IMG/VR virus record: IMGVR_UViG_3300027977_001210
Coordinates: 1 to 56,596 of that record
Reading direction: 5' to 3' (one strand)
Origin: a virus
Lineage: Duplodnaviria > Caudoviricetes
DNA length: 56,596 nt
Below, piece after piece: positions 19,710 to 54,383 of this stretch. Under the pieces are notes generated by a model. It saw only the letters and a program-made list of their open reading frames with translations, was not told where the DNA came from and ran no database searches. The position numbers and the translations under genes were made by a program. The stretch's first letter is position 1. Every line of letters starts with the position of its first letter.

Positions 19710-20081
19710 ATGCTTGAGCATCTACATTTATTGGTGCAAGGCACATCAACAAACTTGTTATCTGAATTTGATATCAAAAACTTTATTCTAGATTTAATTC
19801 AAAAGATTGATATGGATATACTAGGTGGCCCACACATCTATCGTTCGGATATCAAAGGAAACGAAGGTTATACTGCAATTACCGCTATAACAACAAGTCA
19901 CGTTGTTATCCACACATGGGATACTGGATTGATACAACTAGATGTTTACAGTTGCAAAAAATTTGATATTTTAGATATTGTGGAGCCGTTAAAGACACTT
20001 TCTATTACGGATATAAAAATCAAATTCCTCGATAGGTCAAACGGTTTTAGAAATATTGAAATTCCGGGGAACGACCAATGA
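19710..20081 (+). CDS. speD: S-adenosylmethionine decarboxylase-family proenzyme
   Basis: G.T...ITTSHVVIHTW...QLDVYSCK.F pyruvoyl-enzyme motif; TAAATA at 19672-19677. Confidence 0.8.
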   Translation: MLEHLHLLVQGTSTNLLSEFDIKNFILDLIQKIDMDILGGPHIYRSDIKGNEGYTAITAITTSHVVIHTWDTGLIQLDVYSCKKFDILDIVEPLKTLSITDIKIKFLDRSNGFRNIEIPGNDQ

Positions 20082-20608
20082 TTTGGATATTTGGAGACAG
20101 CTTTGCTTCAAGCGGTCAAGATTTGTCATGGACTAGTATTATTGGAGATACTCAAAATTTTGCATCTAACGGCAGCAGCGAATATCGTATTTTAAAAAAT
20201 TATCTTTTACAGAAATCAAATATCAAAGAAACTGATCTAGTATTATTTGTGCATACTTCCCAAAGTAGAATATTTTTAAAAGATGATCGAGAGCTGTCAA
20301 GCAGAATGTTGTCATCGCATGCAGCATGCGATATTATTTTTAACGATGTGTTTGAAAAAAAAGAAAAACAGTATATCGAGATTTTAGAATCAATATGGGA
20401 TGACGAATTCTTTAATGACATCTTTAATCTAATGGTTGACAAGCTACTCAGAGTTCCAAACAGCTATCATTTAACTTTTTTTGAATCACCACGCACTGAA
20501 CTGGTTAATTTAAATCACATATGGTTAAACAATCAAGGAGAAATTAATCATATGAATGCAACCGGTAATCAACTTGTGGCTGATTATGTTAAGCAGTTAA
20601 AGCGTTAA
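20078..20608 (+). CDS. SGNH/GDSL-like protein
   Basis: IFGDSF block I; C-terminal NHMNATGN. Confidence 0.6.
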   Translation: MIWIFGDSFASSGQDLSWTSIIGDTQNFASNGSSEYRILKNYLLQKSNIKETDLVLFVHTSQSRIFLKDDRELSSRMLSSHAACDIIFNDVFEKKEKQYIEILESIWDDEFFNDIFNLMVDKLLRVPNSYHLTFFESPRTELVNLNHIWLNNQGEINHMNATGNQLVADYVKQLKR

Positions 20609-21755
20609 GTAATCTAGTTTCAAATTCTCTAAAGTATTCTGCATCAGCAATTGCCGGAGCGCACCCACTTATACTGTATTTGACATCTGGGCCACCAGTC
20701 AATCCATGTTTAACATACGTGTCGGCGGTTATAGGTGTAGTAAGTTTATAAGAAAAGATCAAACCAATAACTACACAATCCCTAACCAATCCCATTGCTG
20801 TTAGTTTTGCACCTAGCATTGTTAGTTTATCTTCGATCTCAAGAATTTTTTTGCTGTCAAATATTTCCCACACTGCTAATGCAGCTCCAACACCCGCCAT
20901 ATTTGGTTGCCAGGTATGACCGTAGTCCCATTTGTCCTTAATTACATCTGATATGCGTTCAACAGCACAGGCACAGCTTAGTGGACTAAATCCGCCAGTT
21001 AATGCTTTACCTAATGCTACTATGTCCGGCTGCACTCCGTAACGTTCTTGACTAAATTTGTAACCCAGCTTTCCCATACCGCCCATTACATCATCAACAA
21101 TTAAGTTAACTCCATATTCTGTACAAATATTGCGAATGTCTTGCCACCATTTTAAACTCCAAGGACGTATACTTGCCGCCCACGGGATTGATTCCATAAT
21201 AATAGCACCAACAGTATTATCAGTTTCCAATACTTGTTTAACACGATTAAATGCTATTTCTTCGTGTGTTTCTCTATCTTCTATCTTCCACCATTCGGGA
21301 GCACCTAGTACCGTAACATTAGGCATGGTTTCCTCACCTCGAAATGCGCGACATAGATATGTTGCTCCGTGGTATCCCGGTGAAAACGATACTATAGTTG
21401 TTCGAGTTGGATCAACTTGACGCCAGTAATGACTATTCATAGCAACTGCACATTCAACCCCGTCGGTACCACTTATTGCATACCCAACTCCTGTAAAATT
21501 ACCTTCTTTGCAGAGCAACGCTACTAGTGTGTCGTTGGCTTGGCACACTTCGTTATGTTTGAAATTGAGATATGCTAATTGACGTTGTTGTTCGTACATG
21601 CGGTTTAAGATAATCTCATTATCATATCCGTAGATAAATGACATATTACCGCAGATGGTATCTAACAGTTTACCGTGATTGGTATGTATCCAATAACCTT
21701 CTGTTTTAAAAACCTCAGTAACCACTTCTTCAGTAGTTTTAAAATTTAACTCCAT
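20589..21755 (-). CDS. Class III PLP aminotransferase
   Basis: SGTDGVE, GYHG, IIMES, VDDVMGGMGKLG, PDIVALGKALTGG, GHT. Confidence 0.9.
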   Translation of the reverse strand: MELNFKTTEEVVTEVFKTEGYWIHTNHGKLLDTICGNMSFIYGYDNEIILNRMYEQQRQLAYLNFKHNEVCQANDTLVALLCKEGNFTGVGYAISGTDGVECAVAMNSHYWRQVDPTRTTIVSFSPGYHGATYLCRAFRGEETMPNVTVLGAPEWWKIEDRETHEEIAFNRVKQVLETDNTVGAIIMESIPWAASIRPWSLKWWQDIRNICTEYGVNLIVDDVMGGMGKLGYKFSQERYGVQPDIVALGKALTGGFSPLSCACAVERISDVIKDKWDYGHTWQPNMAGVGAALAVWEIFDSKKILEIEDKLTMLGAKLTAMGLVRDCVVIGLIFSYKLTTPITADTYVKHGLTGGPDVKYSISGCAPAIADAEYFREFETRLLNALTA

Positions 21756-22841
21756 TTAAAATCCTAATTTATTTAATACTCTGTCTTTAAATGAAAGTTC
21801 ATCACTTCGCCCCATAGTTGCAAAATAATCACGCATTTGTTTTTTGTAAACATTTTGAAACTCTTTTTGTATATATGGATTGTAGTTGTCTTCTTGAATG
21901 TGATTATAATCATATTGTATACGTTGAGCTAGTCTGCTTTCAACCCCGCCTAATCGCCTGTGCAAGGTAATACTGTTATCAAATAAACATAAATCATTAT
22001 CGTTTTGATACCAATGATCGTATGTGTACTCTGGTACAAACAACTCTTTTGCAATACGTTCAAACACACTGTCTGAATCCTTTTTGCTCATACCTTCGAT
22101 GGATGACATTGTATGTACACTAAAATGCAGTCCTTTGTGGCCGCCCGGGCTACGCATTACCATAGGAACTCTTGAGTCATCGACAGGACACATATTTTTA
22201 TAAATGATCATGTCTTGCTCTTTACGCAATCCTGGATTTATTTTCCCCGGTGCAAATCGATGTAGGACAACCATTTCGTCTAGCTCACTGCGGAAGCTCT
22301 CACTTTGTTTTTCATACCAATCCACAGTGGTCATAAAACCTGTTGAGCTACCAACCATTCCGGTTTCGCCCAACAACGATACACCCGGCGTGAATAATAA
22401 ATTACCAGACTCATTGCTGTGCCATAATAACTCGCCTTCAGCAAATAGACCAACTGGTTCGCCGTACTCATTTTTCTTGCCTGTAACTTTTAACAATGCC
22501 AGTGGTCGGCCTTGTTCATCTGTTTCTAATAAAGGACGCAAGAACTGCAACCACTTACTATCTTCCTCTCCTACTTGTGCATTTGAGTTAAGTGCTTCAA
22601 TTGGAGTAATATGATGTTTCTTTGTAAAATAGTAAGATGCAGTGTCTCTAGGAGTCCCCCATTTACCAATTTGTTCAATGTATCTTTTTTTAGTAAGATT
22701 AGTGTTTCGTATAATTGTAACTAGACTGTTTAGGTGTAGTTTGCCAATTTCCAACCATTCTTCGTCAGTGATGTGATCAAAGTCTACATTGTCTACAAAT
22801 GCTCCAAATCTTCCTAGTCCCGGTATTTTGCTAATTTTCAT
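21756..22841 (-). CDS. TauD/TfdA-family 2OG dioxygenase (start probably 22841)
   Basis: GAFVDNVD, WHSNE, HWYQNDNDLCLFDNSITLHRR, RLAQR. Confidence 0.8.
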   Translation of the reverse strand: MKISKIPGLGRFGAFVDNVDFDHITDEEWLEIGKLHLNSLVTIIRNTNLTKKRYIEQIGKWGTPRDTASYYFTKKHHITPIEALNSNAQVGEEDSKWLQFLRPLLETDEQGRPLALLKVTGKKNEYGEPVGLFAEGELLWHSNESGNLLFTPGVSLLGETGMVGSSTGFMTTVDWYEKQSESFRSELDEMVVLHRFAPGKINPGLRKEQDMIIYKNMCPVDDSRVPMVMRSPGGHKGLHFSVHTMSSIEGMSKKDSDSVFERIAKELFVPEYTYDHWYQNDNDLCLFDNSITLHRRLGGVESRLAQRIQYDYNHIQEDNYNPYIQKEFQNVYKKQMRDYFATMGRSDELSFKDRVLNKLGF

Positions 22842-22843
22842 AA

Positions 22844-23467
22844 TTATTCCTTTACTTTTAATAGCAGTCCGCAAATTAAACTATAACGTGTAACATTGGA
22901 CTTGTTGTAACCTTCGTGCCATGCTGTATGATCGTTGATATGTAATACACCGTTACCAAATGTGTTGTTTATCCTTAGTGGATCATCAAACTTGTTGCTA
23001 GTATAATATACCGTTGATTGATCTGGATCATCTTCCTCAACAAAATATATCATAGCGGTCGCAATCTGTAATCGTGTATCTATGTGTAACGGTATATGGA
23101 ATCCGGGTTGGTCTCTATTAAACATGCAACCCCAAAACGTATACTGGAGCATCTGTTCCTTACTCCACCCTTCCCATAAACTACTTATATAGTCACCTTG
23201 TGCTTCGTATACAAAGTTGACAAGTTGCTCTTTTACACTATTTGAATTTACAAACTCCATAATATCTTTCAACACCTGGCTTTTTGGATTTAAAAGGCCA
23301 GACCGTTGTGCATACGGATTCCCTGACAATCCCGCATCTTCCTTCCTATCAGCGTGTGCTTGCCAATCTTCTGAATCTAATGCGTTTATAATGGTAGCAT
23401 AGTCGTAATCTAGCGATACCGTTAGCTCATACAGTCCAGGACGTAGTAAATTAATAGTCAAGTTCAT
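22844..23467 (-). CDS. Fe(II)/2OG oxygenase
   Basis: HID...WHEG...RYS. Confidence 0.7.
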   Translation of the reverse strand: MNLTINLLRPGLYELTVSLDYDYATIINALDSEDWQAHADRKEDAGLSGNPYAQRSGLLNPKSQVLKDIMEFVNSNSVKEQLVNFVYEAQGDYISSLWEGWSKEQMLQYTFWGCMFNRDQPGFHIPLHIDTRLQIATAMIYFVEEDDPDQSTVYYTSNKFDDPLRINNTFGNGVLHINDHTAWHEGYNKSNVTRYSLICGLLLKVKE

Positions 23468-23964
23468 TTAAATACCGACATTTCAAATAATAATATATCT
23501 GGCTTTGCTAGTTCTATAGAGTTAACTACATAGTCACAGCAGTTATCCCAAGTGGTATGATCGTTGCCATCTCCAAACTTTATCAAGTACATCTTAGGAT
23601 TAAGAGCATTTTTAGATATTAATTCCCAGTGTTTGTTTTCAAGTAGAATCTTTTGTTTTTTATATTCGGCATCCTTGGCTTCAAACGCTGATAATGTAAC
23701 ACATGTGCTGACATTGATAATTTCTTTGTTGGTTCCAATCCAATGGTTCCATACTTGTTCTAATAATACGATTTGTAAAACTGGCAAATACAAACAATTT
23801 ACAAATATATCACAGGGCAGTATAGCATCCACTATAGAGTTGATATTGTTAAAATCATAACCTAACGAGCGTGAAATATCGATTACCGTATGGCCGCGTT
23901 TAGTATAAGCCTTTGCAATACTCTGCCCGACTGATGAAGTTCCGCCCGTTATTGCTATTTTCAT
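23464..23964 (-). CDS. Short SDR-like NAD(P)-binding protein
   Basis: KIAITGGTSSVG, DIFVN, IINVS, YxxxK. Confidence 0.7.
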   Translation of the reverse strand: MKIAITGGTSSVGQSIAKAYTKRGHTVIDISRSLGYDFNNINSIVDAILPCDIFVNCLYLPVLQIVLLEQVWNHWIGTNKEIINVSTCVTLSAFEAKDAEYKKQKILLENKHWELISKNALNPKMYLIKFGDGNDHTTWDNCCDYVVNSIELAKPDILLFEMSVFK

Positions 23965-25121
23965 AAATTTAATAGATCTAACTTTGACTTATCGGGATTG
24001 CGATTAAACAGATATCGTGCTGGAGGAGTATCAGGTAACGGAATGTTCTGATTCTTAAATACATCTCTACGAATAATCTGATGTAGGAAGTTTGTTATGC
24101 CGTCTGGCACAAAATTGCACCAAGGACCGCTACGTAATTCTTCCATGTCTATATTGGTTTCATCGCACCACGCTATTAATCTAACAACTTTATCATCTAT
24201 TTTTACCATTACATGATAGATATTATTGTCTGCTTGTATAATGCGTTCAAAAATCTTGCCATGATCGTTGCACCACTTCTCGACACGTTTATATAGATTG
24301 CTAACAAATGGTTGTTCTGAACTGGCGTTGCGGCCAATCTCTGCTCCGCACCTAATGCGAAAATTCTTTGGGGTCCAAGGGTTACTTGTAATCTCAGTTA
24401 AGATATAATCTAACTCGCTGAAGTCAACCATGGTATAACTTATGTAACCTATCCTGACATTTTCGCGATGCATATTTTCAATAGCACTTATTTGTTTACG
24501 TCTTACTGTTTCGTGGTCAATGTAACTTGGATGATTAAGACCTATGTTAACTCCGGTAAGTCCTGCGGCCACACACTGATGACCAAAATCGCTATCATTG
24601 AACCTTAGCCCGTTAGTCATTACACTTACATTCATTGAAGGGTGAATGTTTCGTATTGCTGTAACCAATTCTGGAAAGTCTTTACGCAAGGTACTTTCGG
24701 CGCCGGCAAGGATAATTCTATGTACTCCATTATCACCCACAGGCATGGCTCGTATTTGATTGAGCAATTCTTCTATAGAAGGGTCACGGGTATCATTCTC
24801 TGGTAAATGGTAACAATGCGGGCACTCTAAGTTACAACGGTCACTACCTTCAATAAGAACTCCGCCATTAAAATTAAACTCTGGATTATCCTGAGTATAA
24901 TACAGGTTAGCGTAAAACTCATAATCAGCTTCAATCATGTGATGGCTGACACCGTGTATAGGACACGCCTTGGCAATAAACACTTGATTGTCTTTGTGGT
25001 AACGCCACGCAGGAACATGCCTATGGCACTGATGGCAAAGACTCACAGTAGGATCTAACTGAATTCCAGTAATACCAGCAAGTATCCTATCTATGTTGGA
25101 AGAATTAAATCCTAGTAGCAT
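23961..25121 (-). CDS. Radical SAM protein with N-terminal CxxC...CxxH metal site
   Basis: CNLECPHC; SLCHQC...KACPIHG; MTNG. Confidence 0.88.
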   Translation of the reverse strand: MLLGFNSSNIDRILAGITGIQLDPTVSLCHQCHRHVPAWRYHKDNQVFIAKACPIHGVSHHMIEADYEFYANLYYTQDNPEFNFNGGVLIEGSDRCNLECPHCYHLPENDTRDPSIEELLNQIRAMPVGDNGVHRIILAGAESTLRKDFPELVTAIRNIHPSMNVSVMTNGLRFNDSDFGHQCVAAGLTGVNIGLNHPSYIDHETVRRKQISAIENMHRENVRIGYISYTMVDFSELDYILTEITSNPWTPKNFRIRCGAEIGRNASSEQPFVSNLYKRVEKWCNDHGKIFERIIQADNNIYHVMVKIDDKVVRLIAWCDETNIDMEELRSGPWCNFVPDGITNFLHQIIRRDVFKNQNIPLPDTPPARYLFNRNPDKSKLDLLNL

Positions 25122-27031
25122 TACAGTAACATTCCGGTATGCACGTTTGACACAATTGGTAAAATTGGTATCACTGGTTTTCTTAAAGGCCCGGCATCAA
25201 TTATTTCTGTATAAGGATTAGTAACATTTATAATGTCTGTCTTACGTAAAAATTTTTCATACATTTGATCCTGCATATGACTAACAGCATCTCGTCTGTT
25301 AACTGAGTACTCACAATCAGTAACAGTCCACCGATCAATATCAATAGATGAATGTATAGTAAACGGGTATTGTTTATTATTGTCTTTAATAAACGCATGT
25401 TGTAATTCAGCAATACATGGATCAACAGTAACAAAATGATGAGCTGCTTGTATACCTAAGTTAATATAATACTCTTTATTCTCAAGTATAATATTTCCGC
25501 CATAACTTTCGGATAGCGTTAGTGCAACTACATTGCCCCAGCGTTCTTCGTCGGGCACTTCGCCTCGATGCAAATAACTAATTAATATTTCTTCTACATT
25601 TTCTAATATTTTACCCGCAACTGGATCAGCCTTAATAACTTGATACATATGATCATAAAACTTTCTGTAATGTATGCCCTTAATATGGTAAAGGTATTTA
25701 GAAATAATTTGTGTGTATCCGCTATAATGAAACTGTGTCATCATCCAAGCATGTGAAAGACACTCAGCAAGGTCTTGCCTTGTAGCAGTATTAGTTTCAC
25801 ACACCATAGCAATGACTTCGTGACTGTTATCTTCGTCATCCCATTTACGTTCTTCCTTGGTTCGGAATAAATCTCCAGGATACATCACCTGTATACCGTA
25901 TTTGTCACGATACTCTTGAGTGTCCATTTCACTGTTAGGAATAACAGTAGCTAGATATGTTTTGATACTATCGTGTTGCCCTAATTCCAACAAACGCATG
26001 ATTCCATTAATGTAACTATCCTTAGTTTCTAATGGAAGTCCAAGAACAAGTTCTGTATAATTTTTAATATTATGTTTTCTACATAACGCATAGGCACGCT
26101 CTAAATCATTCATTCCCATAATGTTACGTTTAACTACTTCTAGTGTAGGAGGATGCAAACTTTGAATAGCAATTTCTAAACCGTAAGACCATTCACGTAT
26201 GTTTTTTTCGATTTCAAAACATGCTTCGTTTAAGTTCTTAGCATGGTTGAATGTAACACGACGAATCTTACTTCCCGGCTTTTGTATAGCTGCTCGAACT
26301 AGCTTAGATATCTCAATATCTCGATCTTTTAAAATTCCCGAGTTGGCGTCAATAACAAACATCCAATGAATATTATTTGTAGTTGCCCAATCAATTTCTG
26401 CACTAGCACGATCCATGCTAAACAATTTTAATTTGTTAAGATAGTCTGCACCCCAGCCGCAGAACGAACAGTGATAAGGACACCCGCGATTTGTTTCGAC
26501 CATCATGAACCAAGATACATCAGGATTGTCAGCGACAATTTTATCGAAGAATCCAGTTAAGTAAGGACTAGGATAATTTTCCAACGATTGCTGTCTAGCA
26601 TTTTTCCAGTATCTGGGTATCTTTTCTCCTGCTAAGTCCATCTTAAGTAACTTGGCCCAGGCTTCCTCGCCTTCCCCAAACATCAGCACATCGATAAATT
26701 CATGCTGTTGCCAAGTTTCCTCAATACTGGGCCCACCAAATACTATTAAACAATTTGGATACTTTTCTTTGATCTTTTTAGCAAGAGTTAGATTCCAGTT
26801 ATGATTCCACACGTAGGTACTAAAACCAATGATGTCAGGATCGATAATTTTTTCCATAACATCACGTTGTCTATCTCTACGCCAGATAACATCTTTCAAC
26901 TCGTAGTTGTTGTATACTTCTTCAAATTGATTAGCATAAGCCCAAATACAACCCACACTAAACGGCAAGTAGTGTTCGTTGTTAAGATAGCCCGAAGTGA
27001 TTTCGGCTTGTATCAAGTATACATTCTTCAT
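25121..27031 (-). CDS. B12-binding radical SAM protein
   Basis: PDIIGFSTYVWN, VFGGP, GEGE, ETNRGCPYHCSFC, LGLP. Confidence 0.9.
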   Translation of the reverse strand: MKNVYLIQAEITSGYLNNEHYLPFSVGCIWAYANQFEEVYNNYELKDVIWRRDRQRDVMEKIIDPDIIGFSTYVWNHNWNLTLAKKIKEKYPNCLIVFGGPSIEETWQQHEFIDVLMFGEGEEAWAKLLKMDLAGEKIPRYWKNARQQSLENYPSPYLTGFFDKIVADNPDVSWFMMVETNRGCPYHCSFCGWGADYLNKLKLFSMDRASAEIDWATTNNIHWMFVIDANSGILKDRDIEISKLVRAAIQKPGSKIRRVTFNHAKNLNEACFEIEKNIREWSYGLEIAIQSLHPPTLEVVKRNIMGMNDLERAYALCRKHNIKNYTELVLGLPLETKDSYINGIMRLLELGQHDSIKTYLATVIPNSEMDTQEYRDKYGIQVMYPGDLFRTKEERKWDDEDNSHEVIAMVCETNTATRQDLAECLSHAWMMTQFHYSGYTQIISKYLYHIKGIHYRKFYDHMYQVIKADPVAGKILENVEEILISYLHRGEVPDEERWGNVVALTLSESYGGNIILENKEYYINLGIQAAHHFVTVDPCIAELQHAFIKDNNKQYPFTIHSSIDIDRWTVTDCEYSVNRRDAVSHMQDQMYEKFLRKTDIINVTNPYTEIIDAGPLRKPVIPILPIVSNVHTGMLL

Positions 27032-27038
27032 TAGATAT

Positions 27039-30773: not shown

Positions 30774-30777
30774 GTCT

Positions 30778-37522: not shown

Positions 37523-37544
37523 TAAATAACTGACTACATATTTA
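37523..37544. promoter_or_regulatory. Opposed TAAATA motifs in divergent intergenic region
   Basis: taaata 37523-37528 (+) and tattta 37539-37544 (-). Confidence 0.55.
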
Positions 37545-37560
37545 TTTTAATACCTACCCA

Positions 37561-46561: not shown

Positions 46562-47760
46562 TCTCTAGAATGCCATGTTGGTTTTTGTAATGTATTAATC
46601 TCTACAGAAGTTATATCATTATACAAGGACATGTTTGCAAATCCAGTGCAGGCCCGCAATGAAAAATTTATCACTGCGTTTGAAAATTTATTCTTGATAT
46701 TTTTAATCATTTCATTTTCTTTATATAATCGATGATCTAAACTATAGAAAAAACTAGTTCCTTCGTAGGCATATATATTGGACAAATTTATCAAAGTTGG
46801 CAAGGTTAAATTTAAATTATCAAAATAGTATTCGTCAGTTAGCAGGTCTATTTTAATAAAATCGTAAGTGACGTTGTCAAGCAAAGGAGCATGCGATCTC
46901 CAGTAGTCTAATGCTTGTTGATTGTAGTCGTACATTATTACTTTAACTGGTTTAGTTTTGCTTATTACATTAACCCACCAATCACCGCTAGCCGGCACAA
47001 CACACTGTTCAAATTCTCCTTGATCAAAATTCATCTTTTCTGTATTGGCTGTATGAATGAATTCGTTGGAACAAAAATGAAATCTTTTATATGCCCACTG
47101 AATGTGATTTAAAAATTCTCTTTGATTTTCTGGATAGTAATGTTTTTTATTTTCTCGAACAGTATCATCAAAAATAATCACAGGTAATTGATTGTCAAAC
47201 GATTCTTTTAATAAGTTCCAACCGTGACATTTATGATTATAAGTTACAAGATTTGTCCCACCATTAACCCATATAGGAGTATAATGGTCATGTATATTTT
47301 CTTTACTACGATGAGGAGCATATTGTTGATGGCCGGCTCCTAATTCTTGTTTGCCTACTACTGGATAATTTAATTTTTTAAATATATTTAAATTTACAAA
47401 ATAACATTGGTGGTGGAGTTCATAATATGCATCTCCTCTATCTAAGATATGCCCTGCTAAAAATGTATCAGTTTTTGATAGCTCTTCTACAGCATTATAA
47501 AATGCCTGTCCGTTTATAAATTCTGTTCCGGTTGAAAATACCACGGCTGATTTATACCCGTAATCTACAGCTGCTCGTAATAATATATCCTCATCCTGAC
47601 CTTGGATAATGTCGTAGCCCTTAGAAAATGTATTTGATATTGTAAAATCGGAAATATTTTTGACAAGTTCACTAGCCCATGAACTAGGATAGGTATGTGT
47701 GTTGTCTACAAAACAGAAAACAATTGGGTTTTTAAATTGTTGAAATTTTACCACGTTCAT
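46552..47760 (-). CDS. Hypothetical protein (402 aa)
   Basis: Long co-oriented ORF; no motif recognised with confidence. Confidence 0.75.
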   Translation of the reverse strand: MNVVKFQQFKNPIVFCFVDNTHTYPSSWASELVKNISDFTISNTFSKGYDIIQGQDEDILLRAAVDYGYKSAVVFSTGTEFINGQAFYNAVEELSKTDTFLAGHILDRGDAYYELHHQCYFVNLNIFKKLNYPVVGKQELGAGHQQYAPHRSKENIHDHYTPIWVNGGTNLVTYNHKCHGWNLLKESFDNQLPVIIFDDTVRENKKHYYPENQREFLNHIQWAYKRFHFCSNEFIHTANTEKMNFDQGEFEQCVVPASGDWWVNVISKTKPVKVIMYDYNQQALDYWRSHAPLLDNVTYDFIKIDLLTDEYYFDNLNLTLPTLINLSNIYAYEGTSFFYSLDHRLYKENEMIKNIKNKFSNAVINFSLRACTGFANMSLYNDITSVEINTLQKPTWHSRDWL

Positions 47761-48394
47761 ATTGTTTATTATAACTTCTTACTACTAATTCTGCAAACTC
47801 TTTCTTTTTATTGCCGATGACACAATGAGCAATCATATGCATGCGAGGACTTGGACTATTATTAACAACTGAATGTGTACTGGTTATATTAACTATGAAT
47901 GCCTTGCCTTCGGAGAACGGAACTGTGCCATGCCCGTCTAATGTCATGTAACAGTTGTCAGGATGTACGATAGCAACATTGATTGGAATCATATGATCCA
48001 TCATGTCAAAATCAGTGTTTCTAACACCGTTTGGAGAATCATTGTGAGGAGCAATGTGGCCGCCAGATGCCAGTTCCATAAATCTCAATCGAGCAAATCT
48101 CTCAGTTGGTATAGATTTCCAAAAGTTAGTAATCGTAGGAGTTAGCATTGATAGTTCTGTCCAGTTATAGGATTCTAATGGTACATTTAAATCAGTTCCA
48201 GTATGCTCAACGCTTTGGCCGTGGATACAACAGCTCCGCCAGCCGTTATGCCCGCCGCCCTCTCTGTGGGGAACTAAAAAAGATTCTGCTAGTTTAGCTT
48301 CTTGTTTCCACTTTGATAAATCGAATGTTAGATCCAATTCTATCCAACCGATAGGCTTTCTAAGTATCTCAGTTGCTTGGTCTATGATATCCAT
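47732..48394 (-). CDS. AspH-like oxygenase
   Basis: RLRFMEL..GGHIAPHND...HSVVN...RMH. Confidence 0.8.
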   Translation of the reverse strand: MDIIDQATEILRKPIGWIELDLTFDLSKWKQEAKLAESFLVPHREGGGHNGWRSCCIHGQSVEHTGTDLNVPLESYNWTELSMLTPTITNFWKSIPTERFARLRFMELASGGHIAPHNDSPNGVRNTDFDMMDHMIPINVAIVHPDNCYMTLDGHGTVPFSEGKAFIVNITSTHSVVNNSPSPRMHMIAHCVIGNKKKEFAELVVRSYNKQYERGKISTI

Positions 48395-48435
48395 GAAATA
48401 TTTATATGCACGGTTTATAGGGTAAATATTTCATG
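48392..48435. repeat. 13-bp inverted repeat TAAATATTTCATG covering both divergent promoters and start codons
   Basis: catgaaatattta 48392-48404 and taaatatttcatg 48423-48435. Confidence 0.85.
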
Positions 48436-49098
48436 CTATCCAAGACAAATTACACAGTTGATACATCGTTATTTCGAGAGGCTTGTGACCAGTTACCAAG
48501 TCAAGATATGAAGACCACTATAAACTGCCCAACCGGAAACTTCTTTTATGATACATGGGAATTGAAAGAAGAATTCAAAGGCACCGTTTGGGAAACTTTA
48601 TATAATTCACTGCCTATAACTAAAGGAGAAGCAAGAATCATTATTTTAGATCCAGCCCATTGTTATCAAACTCATGCAGATATCGATGATCGATACCATC
48701 TTAACATACTAGGTGAAGCATGCTATCTTATGGACTTAGTCAAAGAGCAAATGTGTCTTTTAGAACAAGACGGTGTTTGGTATGATATGGATGCAGGACT
48801 ACTGCACACTGCTGCTAATTTTGGCAGACGTACTAGAGTACAATTAGTAGTTAGACATTTACTAAAAAAGAATGAACTACTAGATCCGGTAGAGATAACA
48901 TTGTCTTCAACTGTAGCTAACACCGACGATACTAGGTTTATATTTGATAATACGTTGAGCTCGTGGCTTAACAAAGCAAATAAGTTAGGCTATATAAGCA
49001 ATTTTTCATATTCTCCAATGGTAGTAAATTTTAATATAGAAAAAAATAAACTAGATATGTTTAAAAGTATTTTGCCAGTCGAATTTAAACTAATATGA
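48433..49098 (+). CDS. AspH-like oxygenase
   Basis: HADIDDRYHL...HTAAN...RVQLV. Confidence 0.75.
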   Translation: MLSKTNYTVDTSLFREACDQLPSQDMKTTINCPTGNFFYDTWELKEEFKGTVWETLYNSLPITKGEARIIILDPAHCYQTHADIDDRYHLNILGEACYLMDLVKEQMCLLEQDGVWYDMDAGLLHTAANFGRRTRVQLVVRHLLKKNELLDPVEITLSSTVANTDDTRFIFDNTLSSWLNKANKLGYISNFSYSPMVVNFNIEKNKLDMFKSILPVEFKLI

Positions 49099-49640
49099 AA
49101 ATTCATATATCTACACTCGGTAAAGAACTGTGTGAAAGTTTAATTAACGAACTTAGTACTCATACGGTTGACCCCAGCCACGGGCACATGGAACTGTCTA
49201 AAAACAATCCATACTATAACGAATATCTTAATCAGACCGAGATGTTAAAATCTGCAGGATATGATGAGCACACAGTCGAATATCGCCACTACCAATCGGG
49301 AGTTCACTTTCATAAAAATTACGAACGTGTTATTAGTGCGGTAGTTAATGCTAAACCGCTAATGTGCTGGGTCAGTGAAATCCGTCCAGGCAAATGCACA
49401 CCGTGGCATTGGGATATTAATCCTTGGGAAAAAGAACACGAACAACTAGGCACGCTTGTGAGATATTTTTGTTTTCTAAGTAGACCATCAGCAGGACATG
49501 TATTTGTCACTGCCGACGATGCATACTACATGGAACAGCAAGGTAGCATATATCAATACGCTGATTTACATGCTTGGCATGCAGGTTCTAATGTAGGATT
49601 AGCACCTAAGTTTTTATTAACTTTTACTGGCTATAAGTAA
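49095..49640 (+). CDS. Small 2OG/AspH-like oxygenase (divergent 'YIGNF'-family member)
   Basis: PGKCTPWHWD...GH...WHAGSNVG. Confidence 0.72.
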   Translation: MKIHISTLGKELCESLINELSTHTVDPSHGHMELSKNNPYYNEYLNQTEMLKSAGYDEHTVEYRHYQSGVHFHKNYERVISAVVNAKPLMCWVSEIRPGKCTPWHWDINPWEKEHEQLGTLVRYFCFLSRPSAGHVFVTADDAYYMEQQGSIYQYADLHAWHAGSNVGLAPKFLLTFTGYK

Positions 49641-50432
49641 TTTAAATTCTTCTGTAAACTTACCATCGATACGCAATCCGTAGCTTTGTTCCATAGTAGC
49701 ATTACCACCGTGCCAGTCTTGATCATTCCACCACGCAGCACGACTATTGATGTATGTGTGATTGCGCTTTTCAGGATCCCACAAATAAAACGGTTTCTTT
49801 GTATTAGGTCGGATGTGTATAAACTCGTTTACGTTATCGGTGTAGTCTTCCTGTAATCCTTTTTCGCCATCTAGATCTCTATGCTCAAAAGGAATACCTC
49901 CCGCTTCACAATGGAAGAATATTACTCGTCCGATATTTTCAAATATTCCTGTAGTAATTAAGTTTTCTACCCATGCAACTGTTCCTGGAAAGTGTGCGGC
50001 TTCGGGCGTGAGTTTTCTAGTAGCACTTCGATCATCCCACGAACCCTGTTCCCATAGAAAATAATAAATGTAAGGATCGTATGCTCCCATAGCCATTTTA
50101 ATATATCGAGTAAATCTATTGCGTACCGTGAAATCTTGAAAGTCTCTATACAAATCAATGCCGCCTTGTTTAATAGGATCGTTATCGGGTAAAGCTAAAA
50201 ATTCTTCTATTGCTTTGTAGATAGGTTTCCAATTTGGAATGTAACTCATGTCTTCTATTTTAAAAGCGGGCTTCATCCATGTGCCTTCTTTAGCAAATTC
50301 TCGTGCATCTGCAAAGCCTCGAAGTATTTCAGGCTGTAGTTGATCGAACTGATCCATATCAATATACGGAGACATATCGATGTATGGCTGATTGTTAATT
50401 CCTTTAATCATAAATTGCTTTTGCCTTCTCAA
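49617..50432 (-). CDS. Fe(II)/2OG oxygenase-like protein (start probably 50411)
   Basis: EHRD...WHGG...LRID. Confidence 0.6.
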   Translation of the reverse strand: MRRQKQFMIKGINNQPYIDMSPYIDMDQFDQLQPEILRGFADAREFAKEGTWMKPAFKIEDMSYIPNWKPIYKAIEEFLALPDNDPIKQGGIDLYRDFQDFTVRNRFTRYIKMAMGAYDPYIYYFLWEQGSWDDRSATRKLTPEAAHFPGTVAWVENLITTGIFENIGRVIFFHCEAGGIPFEHRDLDGEKGLQEDYTDNVNEFIHIRPNTKKPFYLWDPEKRNHTYINSRAAWWNDQDWHGGNATMEQSYGLRIDGKFTEEFKLLIASKS

Positions 50433-51093
50433 TAAAGTCTACTGGGTAGTTACTTCTAAAACTTTCAAAACACAGTATCTGCAATGTCTTTAATGATTCT
50501 GGTTTATCCCAACTTAGTTCCATTGCTTCTATTTGTTTACGCATGATATCTTGTCTAGTACTGTATATATGACTGGCATGATCTGCAATACTAATAGGCC
50601 CTTCATTTTCTCTATATGTAAAAAAGTAGTTTATACTCTTTAGTTTGCCATCAACTACAAAATAGCTGCTAGGATGCATACTGTATTTGTACCATCCTAA
50701 GTCTTTATATGTTTGTATAATATTAAGCATTTGCTCTTGCCAGTCCGGTATAACTTTATCATAGTTTGCAACATCACATTCTGCTCGATTCCAAAAGTCT
50801 ACACCATCCACTTCTAGGTAAAGTTTTCTAGCAGCCAAATCAATATTGATAATTTTGGGAACTAGGTCTGGGTATTTGTTACGCATTTGTGTAAGGTAGT
50901 TTACTTCGCGTAGCCACTTTTCTTCCATCTTGCTAGGATCTACTACTTCGTTCTGTCCTTTATGATATTCAGTATCATTATAATACCATTGTACAAATGT
51001 TTTTTTGTCCTCTGACATTAGACTTGTATAGATTAAATTATTCCGTTGTTCGCCTTGACCTGGAACTTGATTATAATAATAATTAAATTTCAT
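50404..51093 (-). CDS. Protein-kinase-like/phosphotransferase fold protein
   Basis: REVNYL...VPKII...LYLE...HPSSYFVVDGKLKSINY follows the PK-like subdomain order with degenerate catalytic residues. Confidence 0.45.
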   Translation of the reverse strand: MKFNYYYNQVPGQGEQRNNLIYTSLMSEDKKTFVQWYYNDTEYHKGQNEVVDPSKMEEKWLREVNYLTQMRNKYPDLVPKIINIDLAARKLYLEVDGVDFWNRAECDVANYDKVIPDWQEQMLNIIQTYKDLGWYKYSMHPSSYFVVDGKLKSINYFFTYRENEGPISIADHASHIYSTRQDIMRKQIEAMELSWDKPESLKTLQILCFESFRSNYPVDFIEKAKAIYD

Positions 51094-51728
51094 ATTCTAA
51101 TAACCTTGTCTGCAAATTTTTCTATGCTACGTTTTAGCAATGCTTCGTGCTTTTCTTTATTCATTATGCCAACTGTGCTTAACAATATTTTAGTTCTATT
51201 AGTAGGATCAGCAGCGTGTTCTACATCGGTGTTGTTAAATGCGAAACATCGATATTTAGGATCTATTTGTGGCCAAATCTTTTCACCTTTATGCACAAAG
51301 TGAAAAGTATTGTATGCAGGATCAGTTGCATAAATGATATAACGTCTAGGTTCAGTCATATCATATTCAGCATCATTATGCGGAGGAATTGTTCCTATTT
51401 GCATAATGAAACCGCTAGTGCCAATTTGATCAAAGGGCAACTCACGCACACACTTCGCTAATCCAGGAAACGCTTCTTCAAATCCTGGATGAAATACTAA
51501 TCCAGCATCGTCTATAGGCTTGCGTTCTTTAGACCAGTCTAGCCATGCATCGTATGTGTGCCAATTGCCGGGATCCTTGCGTAAGGCAACATAACACCAT
51601 TCATGTCTACCCTCTTCGTATTCCCAGTAGTCTGTGTCAGTAATCTTGTTAGCATGAAACCAATCAATAACTGTTTGCTCATCAGGCATATCAAATTCAA
51701 TGTCTACGGGTGTATAAATTACAGTCAT
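51090..51728 (-). CDS. AspH-like/2OG oxygenase
   Basis: PPHND...FNN...EHAA. Confidence 0.65.
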   Translation of the reverse strand: MTVIYTPVDIEFDMPDEQTVIDWFHANKITDTDYWEYEEGRHEWCYVALRKDPGNWHTYDAWLDWSKERKPIDDAGLVFHPGFEEAFPGLAKCVRELPFDQIGTSGFIMQIGTIPPHNDAEYDMTEPRRYIIYATDPAYNTFHFVHKGEKIWPQIDPKYRCFAFNNTDVEHAADPTNRTKILLSTVGIMNKEKHEALLKRSIEKFADKVIRI

Positions 51729-52357
51729 TCAATCTCGCCTGTGAGTTCCAACAATTTTGGTAAGTCATCTCTCTTGAAACGAAATACTAATCCTATACGA
51801 TCTGTATTGCTATAGTTTTCAGTTTCGTGTTCTATTATAGTATCAACCAAATATACTGTTCCGTCTGCAATCATTCCAACCTCTTTGCGATTGCCGGCAT
51901 GATCCCAAAACTTAAAAATAGCACCGGGTGTATCGTAAATTGGAATATGTGCTGTATACTCGTCTCCTTGATCGACATGCCTTGACACTTTACCTGTAGG
52001 GGGTTGGACAACCAAACTCCAACGATATGCATAAGGGATAAGATTTTGTAATTTAGTAACTAGACCAAATGCCAATTCTGTGTTACGATATTCGCATCTT
52101 TCGTGTGTGCTGATATTATATGGAGGACACGGGATCGTTAAATCTACTAGGTTACTTTGTATTGCCCACCCATAGGGCAATATGCATCCGGGGCCGTTAC
52201 TGATAATTCTGTTATACCATTCGTCGGTGATCTCATGTCCGTATCTATCCCACTTCCAACACAGATGATCGTAATCAGTCGACAGTGTTCGATAATACTC
52301 TTTTAAGCTGTCTAATTTTATAGTAAAATTAAGTTTTGTAACTGCGGTGTCTAACAT
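51725..52357 (-). CDS. AspH-like oxygenase (related to 32144-32818)
   Basis: KLNF...YY.TL, YGWAI, LAFG, HVD...HIPI...HETEN...RIGL. Confidence 0.78.
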   Translation of the reverse strand: MLDTAVTKLNFTIKLDSLKEYYRTLSTDYDHLCWKWDRYGHEITDEWYNRIISNGPGCILPYGWAIQSNLVDLTIPCPPYNISTHERCEYRNTELAFGLVTKLQNLIPYAYRWSLVVQPPTGKVSRHVDQGDEYTAHIPIYDTPGAIFKFWDHAGNRKEVGMIADGTVYLVDTIIEHETENYSNTDRIGLVFRFKRDDLPKLLELTGEIE

Positions 52358-52396: not shown

Positions 52397-53011
52397 ATGC
52401 AAAATAGATATGATTTAACCAATACACACATAGAAATTTATTATAACTCAACTCCTGAGTTTGAGCATGTTCGCGATATTTGTTTACAAGAAGATAATTG
52501 GTTACGTTATAACTACACCAAAGAAAATCTAGTAGTAGAGCAACATACAGGCTACGGAGTGGTCTATCAGAAGTCTACAGGCAAACCCATGGTTATGGGA
52601 GGTGTGTTCAATGACAGCCGTTATCCAAAAAATGTAGCCAAACAGATCAATCGTTTATACACGTTTCCAGAGTTTCGTATGAAGCACACTGACATGACAG
52701 ATGGCTTTAGGGTGACCTGTAGTTTAATTGATGCATTAGAAGCAGTTAACGACTATGATATATATTTGATTACCATGCAGAATAGACCACGTGGTGGAAA
52801 GCGTTGGTGGGACACTTGGGTCAAGCATATGGATATTGCGTCTAATAGCAAGTGGACCTTGGGGCAAGGATATGCACAAACATGTCCGTGGTCTGTGCAA
52901 AAATGTTGGCAGAACTTTGTATACTACGAAACGGTTCCTGGAAAATTTACAGAATGGGATCCTAAAATTATTAATCACGAGGAGTGGACAATATTGCCAG
53001 AAGGAACATGA
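52397..53011 (+). CDS. Hypothetical protein (possible GNAT-like fold)
   Basis: RLYTFPEFR resembles GNAT motif A; weak. Confidence 0.55.
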   Translation: MQNRYDLTNTHIEIYYNSTPEFEHVRDICLQEDNWLRYNYTKENLVVEQHTGYGVVYQKSTGKPMVMGGVFNDSRYPKNVAKQINRLYTFPEFRMKHTDMTDGFRVTCSLIDALEAVNDYDIYLITMQNRPRGGKRWWDTWVKHMDIASNSKWTLGQGYAQTCPWSVQKCWQNFVYYETVPGKFTEWDPKIINHEEWTILPEGT

Positions 53012-53778
53012 ACTATAATCTTAAAGTAAGACTATTACAGTTATTCAATTTCATTGCTAGTATTGTTGCTGTCAGTTATGTATTTTACACTAATGAATTT
53101 TACTGGCTGTGGATCGCATTGGCATCTTGGTTTGTGATTGGACATGTTAGTTCTATTATAACATTGCATAGAATGTTAACACACAAAAGTTTTAAAACCT
53201 GGCCGTGGTTAGAAAATATACTTGTTTGGTTAACTGTATATTCAACTATCGGTCCCACTATTGCTTGGGTAGGACTACATAGAATGCACCATGTTAACTC
53301 AGACAAAGCTGGCGATCCCCACTCGCCGAATGTAGACGGCAAGTTTAATTATTGGGCCGCATTCAAAGTCTGGGTTGGGTATGACTGGCATGTGGAATCT
53401 ATCTCGTTAAAATATGTAAAAGATCTTATTCGTAGCCCGTTACATAAGTTTATCTTTAATCATTATTTTAAAATTATTATCATAACTGGTTTGGTGTTAA
53501 TAGCAATTAACCCTTTACTGTTTTTATTTGTATATGCGTTACCTGCTACACTAACGGTTCAAGTCATTGGACTGGTCAACGTGTTAGGACACAATCATGG
53601 ATATAGAAATTTTGAAACCACAGATCGTAGCACCAATAGTTGGATTGCCGCAATCATTGCACTAGGTGAAGGGTGGCATAACAATCATCACGCAAATCCA
53701 GGCAGATGGTATGCAGGAGAAAAATGGTGGGAATTAGATCCGATGGGCTGGATTATCAAATTAATTAAAGTGAAGTGA
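53008..53778 (+). CDS. Delta-9-type membrane fatty acid desaturase
   Basis: His boxes HRMLTH, HRMHH, GEGWHNNHH; DPHSP; transmembrane segments; AAGGA Shine-Dalgarno before 53008. Confidence 0.93.
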   Translation: MNYNLKVRLLQLFNFIASIVAVSYVFYTNEFYWLWIALASWFVIGHVSSIITLHRMLTHKSFKTWPWLENILVWLTVYSTIGPTIAWVGLHRMHHVNSDKAGDPHSPNVDGKFNYWAAFKVWVGYDWHVESISLKYVKDLIRSPLHKFIFNHYFKIIIITGLVLIAINPLLFLFVYALPATLTVQVIGLVNVLGHNHGYRNFETTDRSTNSWIAAIIALGEGWHNNHHANPGRWYAGEKWWELDPMGWIIKLIKVK

Positions 53779-54383
53779 TGGGTACGTTTTATATCAGTCG
53801 TCCTAGGCTAGCATACATACATGTTCCTCGGACAGGTATGGCAATGAAGAAAATTATTAGTGATTGGATCAAACCAAATTTCGATGTTATTGATACAGAT
53901 TTATGGATGATTGATCACCCTCATTTAGGTATAGTAAAGGATCACTATCCTGATGCAAAGACCATGAGCGTTGTTCGTAACCCGTGGCAACGTGTATACA
54001 GTTTGTATCGTAAAGTAAGCACAGAGGGCTATTGGTTAGATTGGAACAATCAAACTTTGTTAGATCTAAAACCTATTAATGAATGGGTCAAAGATTATTG
54101 TAATCCAGAAATTGAATTTAATTTCCCCAGATGGTTTACACGATTTACTAATCAAATTGACTTTGTTCATATAAATGACGAGTGGGTTGATTATGTATGC
54201 CGAGCAGAATCACTTGAAAACGATTTTAAAAAAGTAAAGGAATATCTAAATTGCAATATTCCTTTGCCCTGTATCAGCGGATATGATCATTGGGAATTTA
54301 AAAAATATTTTAATGATCAAAGTATTCAACTCATAAAAAAAGTCCACGAACGTGATGTGGACTTTTTCAAATATTCTATTTGA
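53775..54383 (+). CDS. Sulfotransferase family 2 protein
   Basis: YIHVPRTG 5'-PSB-like and VRNPWQRVYSLY 3'-PB-like motifs. Confidence 0.75.
   Translation: MMGTFYISRPRLAYIHVPRTGMAMKKIISDWIKPNFDVIDTDLWMIDHPHLGIVKDHYPDAKTMSVVRNPWQRVYSLYRKVSTEGYWLDWNNQTLLDLKPINEWVKDYCNPEIEFNFPRWFTRFTNQIDFVHINDEWVDYVCRAESLENDFKKVKEYLNCNIPLPCISGYDHWEFKKYFNDQSIQLIKKVHERDVDFFKYSI

Follow-up and report, generated by a model that had tools for sequence, protein, structure and literature searches.

A conserved radical SAM-rich core module with variable cassettes in a freshwater T4-like jumbo phage and its possible role in sugar or glycan tailoring

The IMG/VR virus record IMGVR_UViG_3300027977_001210 (56,596 bases, all of which we analyzed and refer to as the window; CheckV completeness 16%) carries an island of 43 open reading frames (ORFs; g01 to g43, positions 19710 to 54383) that is rich in radical S-adenosylmethionine (SAM) proteins and predicted Fe(II)/2-oxoglutarate (2OG) oxygenases. 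We find that this island is composed of a conserved core, g24 to g38 (37561 to 51093), and of variable cassettes, and we favor, with a probability of roughly 0.45, that core and cassettes together tailor a nucleotide sugar or glycan. A preliminary description of the window, made from the sequence alone, had reported 43 contiguous genes with no intergenic room for a precursor peptide, and both points hold given that 99.6% of all bases are coding and the widest gap spans 56 bp. The GC content is ca. 0.35 to 0.38 within the island compared to 0.41 to 0.45 in its flanks. Also as described previously, Pfam scans of the island revealed no nonribosomal peptide synthetase or polyketide synthase (NRPS/PKS), transporter, or regulator family, with 17 of the 43 proteins giving no Pfam match at E<=0.01, and no gene could be assigned to the earlier "kinase-like" label.

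The core was delimited by scanning IMG/VR with the radical SAM protein g28, which resulted in 201 confirmed relatives and 79 loci that were kept (paralogs cross-match in such a scan, and many loci are just 4 to 6 kb long). It recurs across all 79 loci, with homologs of g24, g25, and g27 to g31 present in 73 to 79 of them (g24 in 76, g25 in 73), and the longer loci share the set g24-g25-g27-g28-g29-g30-g31-g32-(g33-g34)-g35-g36-g37-(g38) with rearrangements. In 5 mapped relatives (L011, L026, L038, L047, and L055), the core starting from its g24 homolog directly follows ThyX and a homolog of the next ORF, F18768, while in the window a 17.8-kb block comprising g01 to g23 sits between a tRNA-like element and g24. 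Since the core of the relatives comes directly after ThyX and the tRNA-like element, this block is best understood as an added cassette array. It recurs in another locus (L086) at 64% to 95% amino acid identity, though without g13 to g18. Most of the 14 loci that we fetched with the amidinotransferase g09 encode near the core a sub-cassette of g10, the amidinotransferase, a g03-like aminotransferase, and g07, often accompanied by g01; all 4 genes are found in 8 of these loci, 6 of which have g01 as well, and the aminotransferase is just distantly g03-like (25% to 29% identity). Of these 14 loci, 12 have a g10 homolog located upstream of the amidinotransferase gene, with the two being immediate neighbors in 8, and g07 recurs beside g09 in other loci. 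The tail of the island, g39 to g43, is present in only 2 to 3 of the 79 loci.

The core is under strong purifying selection, with dN/dS values of 0.04 to 0.15 for the 6 core genes with unsaturated dS (g27, g28, g29, g35, g36, and g37; no ratio is available where pS is saturated, and g31 was dropped for an implausible pN), so that the relaxed selection considered in the preliminary description is not borne out for these genes. Paralogs within the island are 26% to 41% identical to each other, indicating that they are old and not the product of a recent burst. The synteny across related phages, which had been proposed as a check, thus shows a recurring core and varying cassettes instead of the single unit diversified by paralog expansion that had been suggested. 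No substrate or precursor gene travels with the core in our locus maps, in which fiber genes are not co-conserved either, and this points to a metabolite as the substrate or to a macromolecule whose gene lies elsewhere.

The tRNA-like element at the left border of the island was recognized by eye and by its fold, while ARAGORN and Rfam call no tRNA at window positions 19512 to 19624 (Rfam none even at E<=10). Counterparts exist in L047 (1625-1752), L026 (7225-7367), L055 (3973-4109), L014 (524-660), and L022 (2550-2645), describing a tRNA-like RNA of ca. 96 to 113 nt that has a 7-bp acceptor stem, an ACCA end, and a perfect T arm and whose middle is variable and too long. Only 1 of the 11 matching sources scanned has the element called by ARAGORN (a 96-nt tRNA-Gly in L022), and 3 acceptor-stem pairs show compensatory changes. 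The element is conserved between the ORF following ThyX and the g24 homologs of the relatives and marks the insertion point of the block g01 to g23 in the window. Of the two borders named in the preliminary description, the tRNA-like gene therefore stands by sequence and fold though not by ARAGORN or Rfam, and the fiber gene on the right stands with a domain score (26.2 bits) just under the cut-off of 26.3.

Misassembly with cellular DNA, which had been raised as a concern, does not explain the island: the window is a virus record found in lake-water metagenomes, the junction of g23 and g24 is bridged at >=99% identity by contigs of 3 other lake runs, and the capsid gene Gp23 is encoded in 3 of 5 long relative records. 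Four runs cover 28 to 30 of the 30 bins of positions 18001 to 38000. At the left junction (19542 to 19662), no bridging contig was found among the pieces listed, and single-contig skips there have sides of <30 nt and are not interpreted; the sequencing runs listed for this stretch include no RNA dataset. The long relatives are 32% to 74% complete at 117 to 260 kb, which translates into genomes of ca. 350 kb, and the host phage is an uncultured freshwater T4-like jumbo phage of about this size by CheckV estimate. Megablast of both window halves against cultured phages gave no match, and tblastn against phages found only 4 records with g28 and 2 with g24 at 22% to 26% identity. A scan of genome contigs with g28 returned a single 5.5-kb contig of a metagenome-assembled genome, which has 2 such genes on short contigs and where this contig probably is phage DNA in a bin.

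The 10 radical SAM proteins of the preliminary description were recovered by a six-frame search with PF04055, 8 of them above the cut-off and the remaining 2 (g08 and g18, both with a B12-binding domain) below it, and the CX3CX2C motif is intact in all 10. Seven belong to the core. Three of these (g26, g28, and g31) match the family NF033640 of twitch domain-containing radical SAM proteins over their full length, far beyond its curated cut-off of 170 bits and with the SPASM Pfam match at their N-terminus, while g27 with its C-terminal SPASM domain is no member at 42.8 bits. Weak matches to QueE are seen for the short radical SAM proteins g24, g29, and g30. Searches of PDB sequences with g28 and g24 found nothing significant, and g26 has no match among plasmid sequences. 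On plasmid pBHWA1 of Brachyspira (L105, 11269 to 13305), g31 is matched by tblastn in a single frame that spans 2 adjoining annotated genes, namely the end of one annotated as radical SAM and the beginning of its successor, which is annotated as SPASM-domain gene. The N-terminal-twitch form may thus have arisen from fused neighbors, with the C-terminal auxiliary-cluster domain coming from one gene and the core from the gene after it.

The 5 relative records contain 8, 10, 10, 21, and 22 radical SAM matches, of which the two with 10 look like one phage. Within ca. 60 kb, G004 (the record of L059; ca. 57 to 116 kb) and G006 (that of L049; ca. 48 to 105 kb) reach 21 and 22 matches, about twice the number of the window and above the 11 to 12 of phages CP220 and CPt10. 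The records searched with PF05118 (Asp_Arg_Hydrox) have 3 to 5 detectable genes each, mostly near radical SAM genes.

The 15 oxygenases with HxD...H motifs that had been counted before can all be pointed out as oxygenase-like proteins, yet with uneven support. Pfam cut-offs are exceeded by g04 (TauD) and by g17 and g34 (PF05118), and g05, g19, g20, and g40 remain below them (g19, g20, and g40 with PF05118). By blastp and hidden Markov model (HMM), g11, g12, g13, g23, and g36 are paralogs of g19 and g20 that give no PF05118 match themselves, and together these 7 proteins form a family that we call cupA. Of the others, g35 and g37 are leads from language-model neighbors and an HxD..H motif, and g39 shows the motif alone. 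The H96, D98, and H148 triad of cupA is invariant across an alignment of 40 sequences, and an arginine or lysine follows ca. 10 residues past the distal histidine in all 7 paralogs. For a model of g11 with a predicted local distance difference test (pLDDT) score of 91, all 50 matches listed by a wide VIA search are Fe/2OG oxygenases (Z 9.5 to 13.8), while Foldseek with the same model put generic small cupins on top. We assign cupA to the Fe(II)/2OG oxygenases as predicted by the VIA search and the invariant triad. The structural neighbors of g11 by VIA include the sugar-tailoring enzymes AviO1, EvdMO1, EvdO2, HygX, KanJ, and PolD. In g37, H184, D186, and H241 are invariant in 9 sequences, and its profile matched nothing significant among PDB sequences.

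Among the other core proteins, g25, g32, and g33 are highly abundant in sequence databases, with at least 6,005 clusters at 90% identity for g25, at least 2,583 for g32, and 776 for g33, any name given by a source being "hypothetical protein" except for one evidently misassigned name (g25) and an automatic QueC label for part of g32. We found no Pfam, PHROG, or NCBIfam match for g25 and nothing significant when its profile was compared to PDB sequences. Homologs with 36% to 43% identity occur in 84 rhizobial replicons and, in every listed record with an annotation for the match, are given as class I SAM-dependent methyltransferase, which is why g25 is labeled methyltransferase-like; no relation to g15 was seen when its profile was aligned to g15 with hhalign. 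Of the 2 methyltransferases described earlier, g15 is hence one by Pfam and g25 a candidate through its rhizobial homologs. The PP-loop ATPase of that description is supported in g32, where the SGGxDS motif and cysteines C208, C229, C232, and C235 are invariant in 10 sequences. Its scores (PF06508, 23.1 bits overall with no single stretch passing; TIGR00364, 17.4 against a cut-off of 150) suggest a PP-loop superfamily protein that is not equivalent to QueC, and it has no match among plasmid sequences. The structure model of g33 is matched by GT-A glycosyl- and nucleotidyl-transferases in Foldseek and VIA (Z 8 to 10.8) and features a Rossmann-like second domain as well as invariant acidic residues; its sequence belongs to no family, without any CAZy or Pfam match, and neither sequence nor profile found anything significant among PDB sequences.

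In the cassettes, the decarboxylase, aminotransferase, and desaturase of the preliminary description are supported by Pfam (g01, g03, and g42, respectively), with more specific matches all below cut-off (TIGR03330 for g01, BioA-like families as top NCBIfam matches for g03, and the DesA family for g42). The amidinotransferase is supported as well: the profile of g09 matches 7 PDB sequences with E-values of 4.4e-34 to 1.3e-22, among them HsvA (4.4e-34), StrB1 (6.4e-30), AGAT (2.8e-24), and SxtG (2.1e-23), and its invariant H342-C343 corresponds in the alignment to the HC of HsvA, an enzyme shown to act on spermidine. We therefore classify g09 as an amidinotransferase by full-length similarity and predicted catalytic His-Cys pair. 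The family of its neighbor g10 has an invariant C21-P22 (consensus VCPFA) and no relative in PDB sequences by profile search; g10 could serve as a carrier or partner. The sulfotransferase noted previously is traceable in weak matches of g43, including a PHROG match to galactose-3-O-sulfotransferase (2.8e-5), and the 4 SGNH-like proteins (g02, g14, g16, and g22) are recognized by motif. Segments resembling transmembrane helices are found in g42 (3) and g06 (1, borderline) and in no other island protein, and the oxygenases look soluble. All features are compiled in Table 1.

Table 1. Coordinates of the island genes and flanking features in the window and the basis of their assignment.
Feature	Position	Strand	Basis and remarks
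Giant 2253-aa protein	1723-8484	-	N-terminus like T4 baseplate-wedge/fiber connector; several fiber-like segments
UvdE-type UV damage endonuclease	9262-10299	-	PF03851 E 8.6e-39; among fiber and glycan genes
Glycosyltransferase-like gene	10318-11118	-	phrog_1962 5.9e-27
DAHP/KDO8P-synthase-family gene	11093-11938	-	PF00793 6.6e-71
QueD-like 6-pyruvoyl-tetrahydropterin synthase (PTPS)	12090-12632	-	
tRNA-like element	19512-19624	-	7-bp acceptor stem, ACCA tail, canonical T arm, ca. 35 extra nt in mid-region
g01, AdoMet-decarboxylase-like, pyruvoyl-type	19710-20081	+	PF02675 E 1.1e-11, 45.5 bits, above cut-off
g02, SGNH-like by motif only	20078-20608	+	GDS at residue 6; no Pfam/PHROG match; weak similarity to g22
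g03, class-III (omega) aminotransferase	20589-21755	-	PF00202 E 2.8e-44
g04, TauD-family oxygenase	21756-22874	-	PF02668 E 2.3e-13, above cut-off
g05, 2OG-Fe(II)-oxygenase-like, weak	22844-23467	-	PF13640 E 0.0039, below cut-off; H128xD130..H184
g06, short Rossmann protein, N-terminus like short-chain dehydrogenases/reductases (SDR)	23464-23964	-	Weak PHROG matches to reductase/epimerase N-termini
g07, radical SAM, N-terminal zinc ribbon	23961-25121	-	PF04055 1.7e-14, PF23545 9.6e-14
g08, B12-binding radical SAM, C-methyltransferase-like	25121-27031	-	PF02310 and PF04055; KedN5-family 4.7e-49, below cut-off
g09, amidinotransferase	27039-28124	-	Profile vs PDB; invariant H342-C343
g10, 137-aa protein	28121-28534	-	phrog_10325
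g11, g12, g13, cupA oxygenases, 167-187 aa	28531-30133	-	blastp, HMM
g14, SGNH-like by motif	30072-30773	-	Paralog of g16 (60% identical); weak DUF6473 match
g15, class I SAM-dependent methyltransferase	30778-31473	-	PF13847 3.8e-19 and others
g16, SGNH-like by motif	31470-32147	-	Paralog of g14
g17, Asp/Asn-beta-hydroxylase-family oxygenase	32144-32818	-	PF05118 4.2e-8, above cut-off; paralog of g40
g18, B12-binding radical SAM	32796-34649	-	Paralog of g08; KedN5-like, below cut-off
g19, g20, cupA oxygenases	34646-35733	-	PF05118 below cut-off
g21	35730-36194	-	C-terminal part like endolysin-PHROG domain: phrog_181 7e-12, residues 78-150
g22, SGNH-like by motif	36187-36966	-	
g23, cupA oxygenase	36950-37504	-	Final gene of variable block
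g24, short radical SAM	37561-38535	+	First core gene; PF04055 5.3e-13
g25, class I methyltransferase-like	38526-39125	+	Annotated rhizobial homologs
g26, N-terminal-twitch radical SAM	39106-40413	+	NF033640 259 bits
g27, radical SAM, C-terminal SPASM domain	40410-41495	+	dN/dS 0.039
g28, N-terminal-twitch radical SAM	41488-42786	+	NF033640 407.6 bits; dN/dS 0.043
g29, short radical SAM	42783-43709	+	dN/dS 0.055
g30, short radical SAM	43671-44591	-	CX3CX2C present
g31, N-terminal-twitch radical SAM	44575-45888	-	NF033640 329 bits
g32, PP-loop ATPase	45821-46561	-	QueC-like Cys cluster
g33, two-domain protein, N-terminal GT-A (nucleotide-diphospho-sugar transferase) fold	46552-47760	-	AF2 model, pLDDT 86.4
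g34, Asp/Asn-beta-hydroxylase-family oxygenase	47732-48394	-	PF05118 1.8e-10, above cut-off
g35, AspH-like oxygenase (lead)	48433-49098	+	ESM Atlas neighbors partly PF05118; H81xD83..H142; dN/dS 0.15
g36, cupA oxygenase	49095-49640	+	dN/dS 0.079
g37, AspH-like oxygenase (lead)	49617-50432	-	Atlas neighbors; dN/dS 0.054
g38, conserved protein, no family	50404-51093	-	In 20/79 loci
g39 (HxD..H motif only) and g40 (Asp_Arg_Hydrox)	51090-52357	-	g40 below cut-off, paralog of g17
g41, no family found	52397-53011	+	
g42, membrane fatty-acid-desaturase-family di-iron enzyme	52984-53778	+	PF00487 1.8e-21; three hydrophobic segments
g43, sulfotransferase-like, weak	53775-54383	+	PF13469 0.0031, below cut-off
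Fiber-like protein, Mtd_N domain	54384-56036	-	PF18454 7.7e-6, 26.2 bits (cut-off 26.3)

Several features of the island and its homologs point to sugar or glycan chemistry, namely the GT-A fold of g33, the genomic contexts of bacterial homologs of the twitch radical SAM proteins and of g25, and the flank genes together with g43, and it is from these that we infer the class of substrate. Three of 4 plasmid contexts examined for the twitch radical SAM proteins are rich in glycosyltransferases, and plasmid homologs of g31 sit in glycan loci. The Methylomagnum context comprises GT39, GT2, 2 GT4, and another glycosyltransferase next to AsnB, an ABC transporter, a methyltransferase, and PhyH; that of Brachyspira pBHWA1 has 6 genes annotated as radical SAM and one as SPASM-domain alongside glycosyltransferases, rfbF, rfbC, and an epimerase/dehydratase; and the Paracoccus context has GT25, a glycosyltransferase, and a nucleotide-sugar dehydrogenase. 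Similarly, in the one rhizobial region that we examined, the g25 homolog has 3 glycosyltransferases as neighbors along with an FkbM methyltransferase, an ABC transporter, and a polysaccharide lyase. In the flank of the island, the glycosyltransferase-like gene and the DAHP/KDO8P-synthase-family gene form a pair that is syntenic with the core in relative L038. The sugar-tailoring oxygenases among the VIA neighbors of g11 and the CP220 block with its 2 genes of nucleotide-diphospho-sugar-transferase fold point the same way, as do the LPS/glycosyltransferase genes found with radical SAM cassettes in pelagimyophage host recognition clusters (PMC7029224).

Taken as a sugar- or glycan-tailoring system, the region would be a hypervariable, tail fiber-associated auxiliary region of a T4-like jumbo phage in which the core (7 radical SAM proteins with 3 N-terminal-twitch, 1 C-terminal SPASM, and 3 short members, methyltransferase-like g25, the PP-loop ATPase, the GT-A-fold transferase, and several Fe(II)/2OG oxygenases) and its swappable cassettes build or tailor an unusual sugar or nucleotide sugar-borne substituent. 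The cassettes would contribute the amidinotransferase with g10, the aminotransferase, the decarboxylase, B12 radical SAM methylases, and oxygenases, and further the SGNH-like proteins, the desaturase, and the sulfotransferase-like protein, so that the chemistry might comprise hydroxylation, C-methylation, and amination or amidination, with acylation and sulfation as further possibilities. The product may end up on a glycoconjugate, with virion fibers or capsid, host lipopolysaccharide (LPS) or capsule, or none of these as candidate acceptors. The closest solved relatives of g09 are small-molecule amidinotransferases, and action on an existing macromolecule as envisioned in the preliminary description is thus not the best fit; together with the decarboxylase, aminotransferase, PP-loop ATPase, and GT-A protein, these relatives would rather suggest that a sugar or amine unit is made from primary metabolites, which needs no scaffold synthase. 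Among the targets proposed in that description (virion proteins or their glycans, envelope lipids or LPS, and nucleic acid), we favor glycans and see little support for nucleic acid. If the glycan reading is true, this would be among the most elaborate viral sugar-tailoring machineries known, with bearing on host recognition, superinfection exclusion, and defense evasion in lakes, and a large reservoir of radical SAM and 2OG oxygenase chemistry that is yet to be tapped. A bolder version, in which g24 to g38 are a virus-borne pathway with at least 7 radical SAM enzymes for a new class of hyper-tailored sugar, C-methylated, hydroxylated, and aminated or amidinated, that is displayed on virions or the infected cell surface and diversified by swappable oxygenase and methylase cassettes in an arms race of abundant freshwater jumbo phages over adsorption or defense, seems doubtful to us.

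Our restraint regarding the glycan reading is due to the distant homologies, the absence of a nucleotide-sugar synthase, and the fact that the oxygenases resemble protein prolyl hydroxylases at least as much as sugar-tailoring enzymes, and a number of observations speak against it. The bacterial radical SAM homologies amount to just 22% to 27% identity, the Brachyspira match to g31 extends over 2 annotated genes, and the Azospirillum context examined (1 of 3 plasmid matches in this genus) is devoid of glycosyltransferases; its match covers only residues 4 to 84 of g28 (the N-terminal 81), and it was not counted as a homolog context. In the island, we detected no nucleotide-sugar synthase, no dehydratase, and no aminotransferase of the DegT type, and its 17 proteins lacking a Pfam match weigh on the same side. 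The solved relatives of g09 act on free amines except for StrB1, which acts on a cyclitol, and the GT-A fold is common to nucleotidyltransferases, with the Z-scores of g33 (8 to 11) being only moderately above the stated background of the tool. Finally, the top structural neighbors of g11 are protein prolyl hydroxylases and PiuC, so that protein substrates fit equally well.

The amidinotransferase cassette could instead indicate a free nitrogen-rich small molecule such as a guanidino-polyamine or an aminocyclitol/aminoglycoside-like compound that is used in the cell or released. Besides the solved relatives of g09, this alternative can draw on the AdoMet-decarboxylase-like gene and the omega-aminotransferase that recur with the amidinotransferase. 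Aminoglycoside tailoring employs B12 radical SAM methylases, twitch radical SAM enzymes, 2OG oxygenases, and amidinotransferases, with BtrN and GenK as further enzymes of aminoglycoside/aminocyclitol tailoring. The island has the same enzyme classes as these pathways, including a glycosyltransferase fold, and KanJ and HygX (as oxygenase neighbors) and StrB1 (with g09) are among our matches, but no equivalog cut-off is reached and Pfam scans of the island found no exporter, resistance gene, or cyclitol or other scaffold synthase. Cyanophage S-SCSM2R has an amidinotransferase and a radical SAM gene that are presented as "antibiotic synthesis genes" in the corresponding section of its description (PMC12801897). 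Since the amidinotransferase cassette is absent from many core-bearing loci, and attachment is suggested by the GT-A protein together with the glycan loci in which homologs are found, we consider a free small molecule unlikely. It is somewhat less likely still that the oxygenases and radical SAM enzymes directly modify proteins of tail fibers, virion, or host with each paralog serving its own site, even though the island sits among fiber genes. The best neighbors of g11 are PiuC and hydroxylases of protein or free proline (Z 11.4 to 13.8, including a chlorovirus collagen prolyl hydroxylase) and also comprise AspH, Pfam puts 7 members in or near the Asp/Asn-beta-hydroxylase family, and the NCBIfam lists for SPASM/twitch radical SAM proteins include protein and peptide maturases. 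However, direct protein modification would leave the amidinotransferase, decarboxylase, aminotransferase, PP-loop ATPase, and GT-A protein unexplained, no precursor, substrate, or fiber gene is co-conserved with the core, and the flanking structural proteins contain no collagen-like or EGF-type hydroxylation motif. In the polytheonamide pathway, which makes a proteusin, one substrate is hypermodified by B12 radical SAM C-methylases together with further radical SAM enzymes, a methyltransferase, and a 2OG hydroxylase. A comparable pathway for a ribosomally made peptide with post-translational modifications (RiPP) is unlikely here: gaps do not exceed 56 bp, no conserved precursor-like small gene appears in the core maps (ca. 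84% of the genome lies outside the window and might encode one), Pfam scans of the island reported no protease or leader-recognition domain, and the small-molecule enzymes of the island are foreign to RiPP clusters.

A remodeling that targets lipids of the host envelope (lipid A or membrane acyl chains) instead of sugars is suggested by the membrane desaturase g42, the 4 SGNH-like proteins, and weak matches of g07 and the B12 radical SAM proteins to the lipid-modifying families Tes, ladderane, and HpnR, and PF05118 also includes the lipid A hydroxylase LpxO. We regard this as quite improbable because membrane-like segments are restricted to g42 and g06, the desaturase belongs to the least conserved tail (3 of 79 loci), and the lipid-family matches are far below cut-off. 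Even more remote appears a hypermodification of phage DNA or RNA, e.g., with a 7-deazaguanine or polyamine-type base, which would fit to ThyX and the QueD-like PTPS in the flank, to the QueC-like g32 with some homologs named QueC by JGI, and to the QueE matches of the short radical SAM proteins; in CP220, an annotated QueD-like gene is located upstream of the radical SAM block at a distance of ca. 5.8 kb. Yet the window contains no FolE, TGT/DpdA, or clear QueC/QueE partners of the QueD-like gene, and any remaining genes of a 7-deazaguanine pathway would be located outside the sequenced part of the genome. TGT/DpdA was found in none of 5 records (fragments that are 16% to 74% complete, including the 74%-complete relative), with FolE in 1, PTPS in 1, and QueC in 2 of them. 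This patchiness together with the missing TGT indicates that the deazaguanine set does not travel with the core. Pfam scans of the island found no base-modifying family such as DNA-glycosyltransferases, kinases, or TET/JBP-type enzymes.

Radical SAM cassettes in such phage regions have already been published, and what is new are the delimitation of a core module that is very abundant, its architecture with cassettes, and the lead toward glycans. Host recognition clusters of pelagimyophages contain LPS and glycosyltransferase genes as well as Asp/Asn beta-hydroxylases and gain or lose radical SAM cassettes, and this hyperplastic region of T4-like pelagi- and cyanomyophages likewise is a large non-syntenic island among tail fiber genes of aquatic phages, according to the part of the work devoted to it (PMC7029224). 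Unlike these, the phage described here is a freshwater jumbo phage whose relatives have 8 to 22 radical SAM genes per contig and for which a conserved core module is delimited. Moreover, the host recognition cluster is defined between VrlC and gp14, while we judge from a 16% fragment with fiber-like genes on both sides of the island. T4-like phages CP220 and CPt10 have 11 to 12 radical SAM genes and an amidinotransferase in each cluster, as stated in the gene cluster passages of the 2010 report (PMC2853527). The CP220 block combines 5 radical SAM genes with a "possible glycine amidinotransferase" homologous to g09 (23% identity over 96% of g09) and 2 genes with nucleotide-diphospho-sugar-transferase fold near baseplate genes, with a PAP2 gene ca. 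1 kb further on. Its radical SAM proteins share 22% to 36% identity with those of the island over partial lengths (E ca. 1e-14 to 8e-4 in a four-locus database), and neither an annotated oxygenase or PP-loop gene nor a methyltransferase-like core gene is present in the part of CP220 that was examined. A T4-like marine environmental viral genome has 12 radical SAM genes, which the pertinent section treats as clients of phage Fe-S assembly without reference to a module, synteny, or product (PMC5332604). On the bacterial side, the pBHWA1 locus of Brachyspira hyodysenteriae has a similar row of radical SAM genes beside nucleotide-sugar genes and glycosyltransferases but shows weak homology to g31 (23.5%, E 2e-5) and no array of 2OG oxygenases. 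No product or substrate of phage radical SAM genes is assigned in the passages on these genes in PMC7029224, PMC2853527, PMC5332604, and PMC12801897, and we found no description of the core module or of NF033640 function in open-access papers or bioRxiv. This module that is very common in metagenomes and purifying-selected now has a testable substrate class.

Regarding transcription, the T4 late-promoter motif TATAAATA occurs 2 times compared to 6.85 expected occurrences, from which no inference is drawn. Fiber-like genes flank the island on both sides, and the left flank encodes ThyX and fiber-like proteins, including the giant 2253-aa protein that probably is the main long fiber or a baseplate-attached giant protein.

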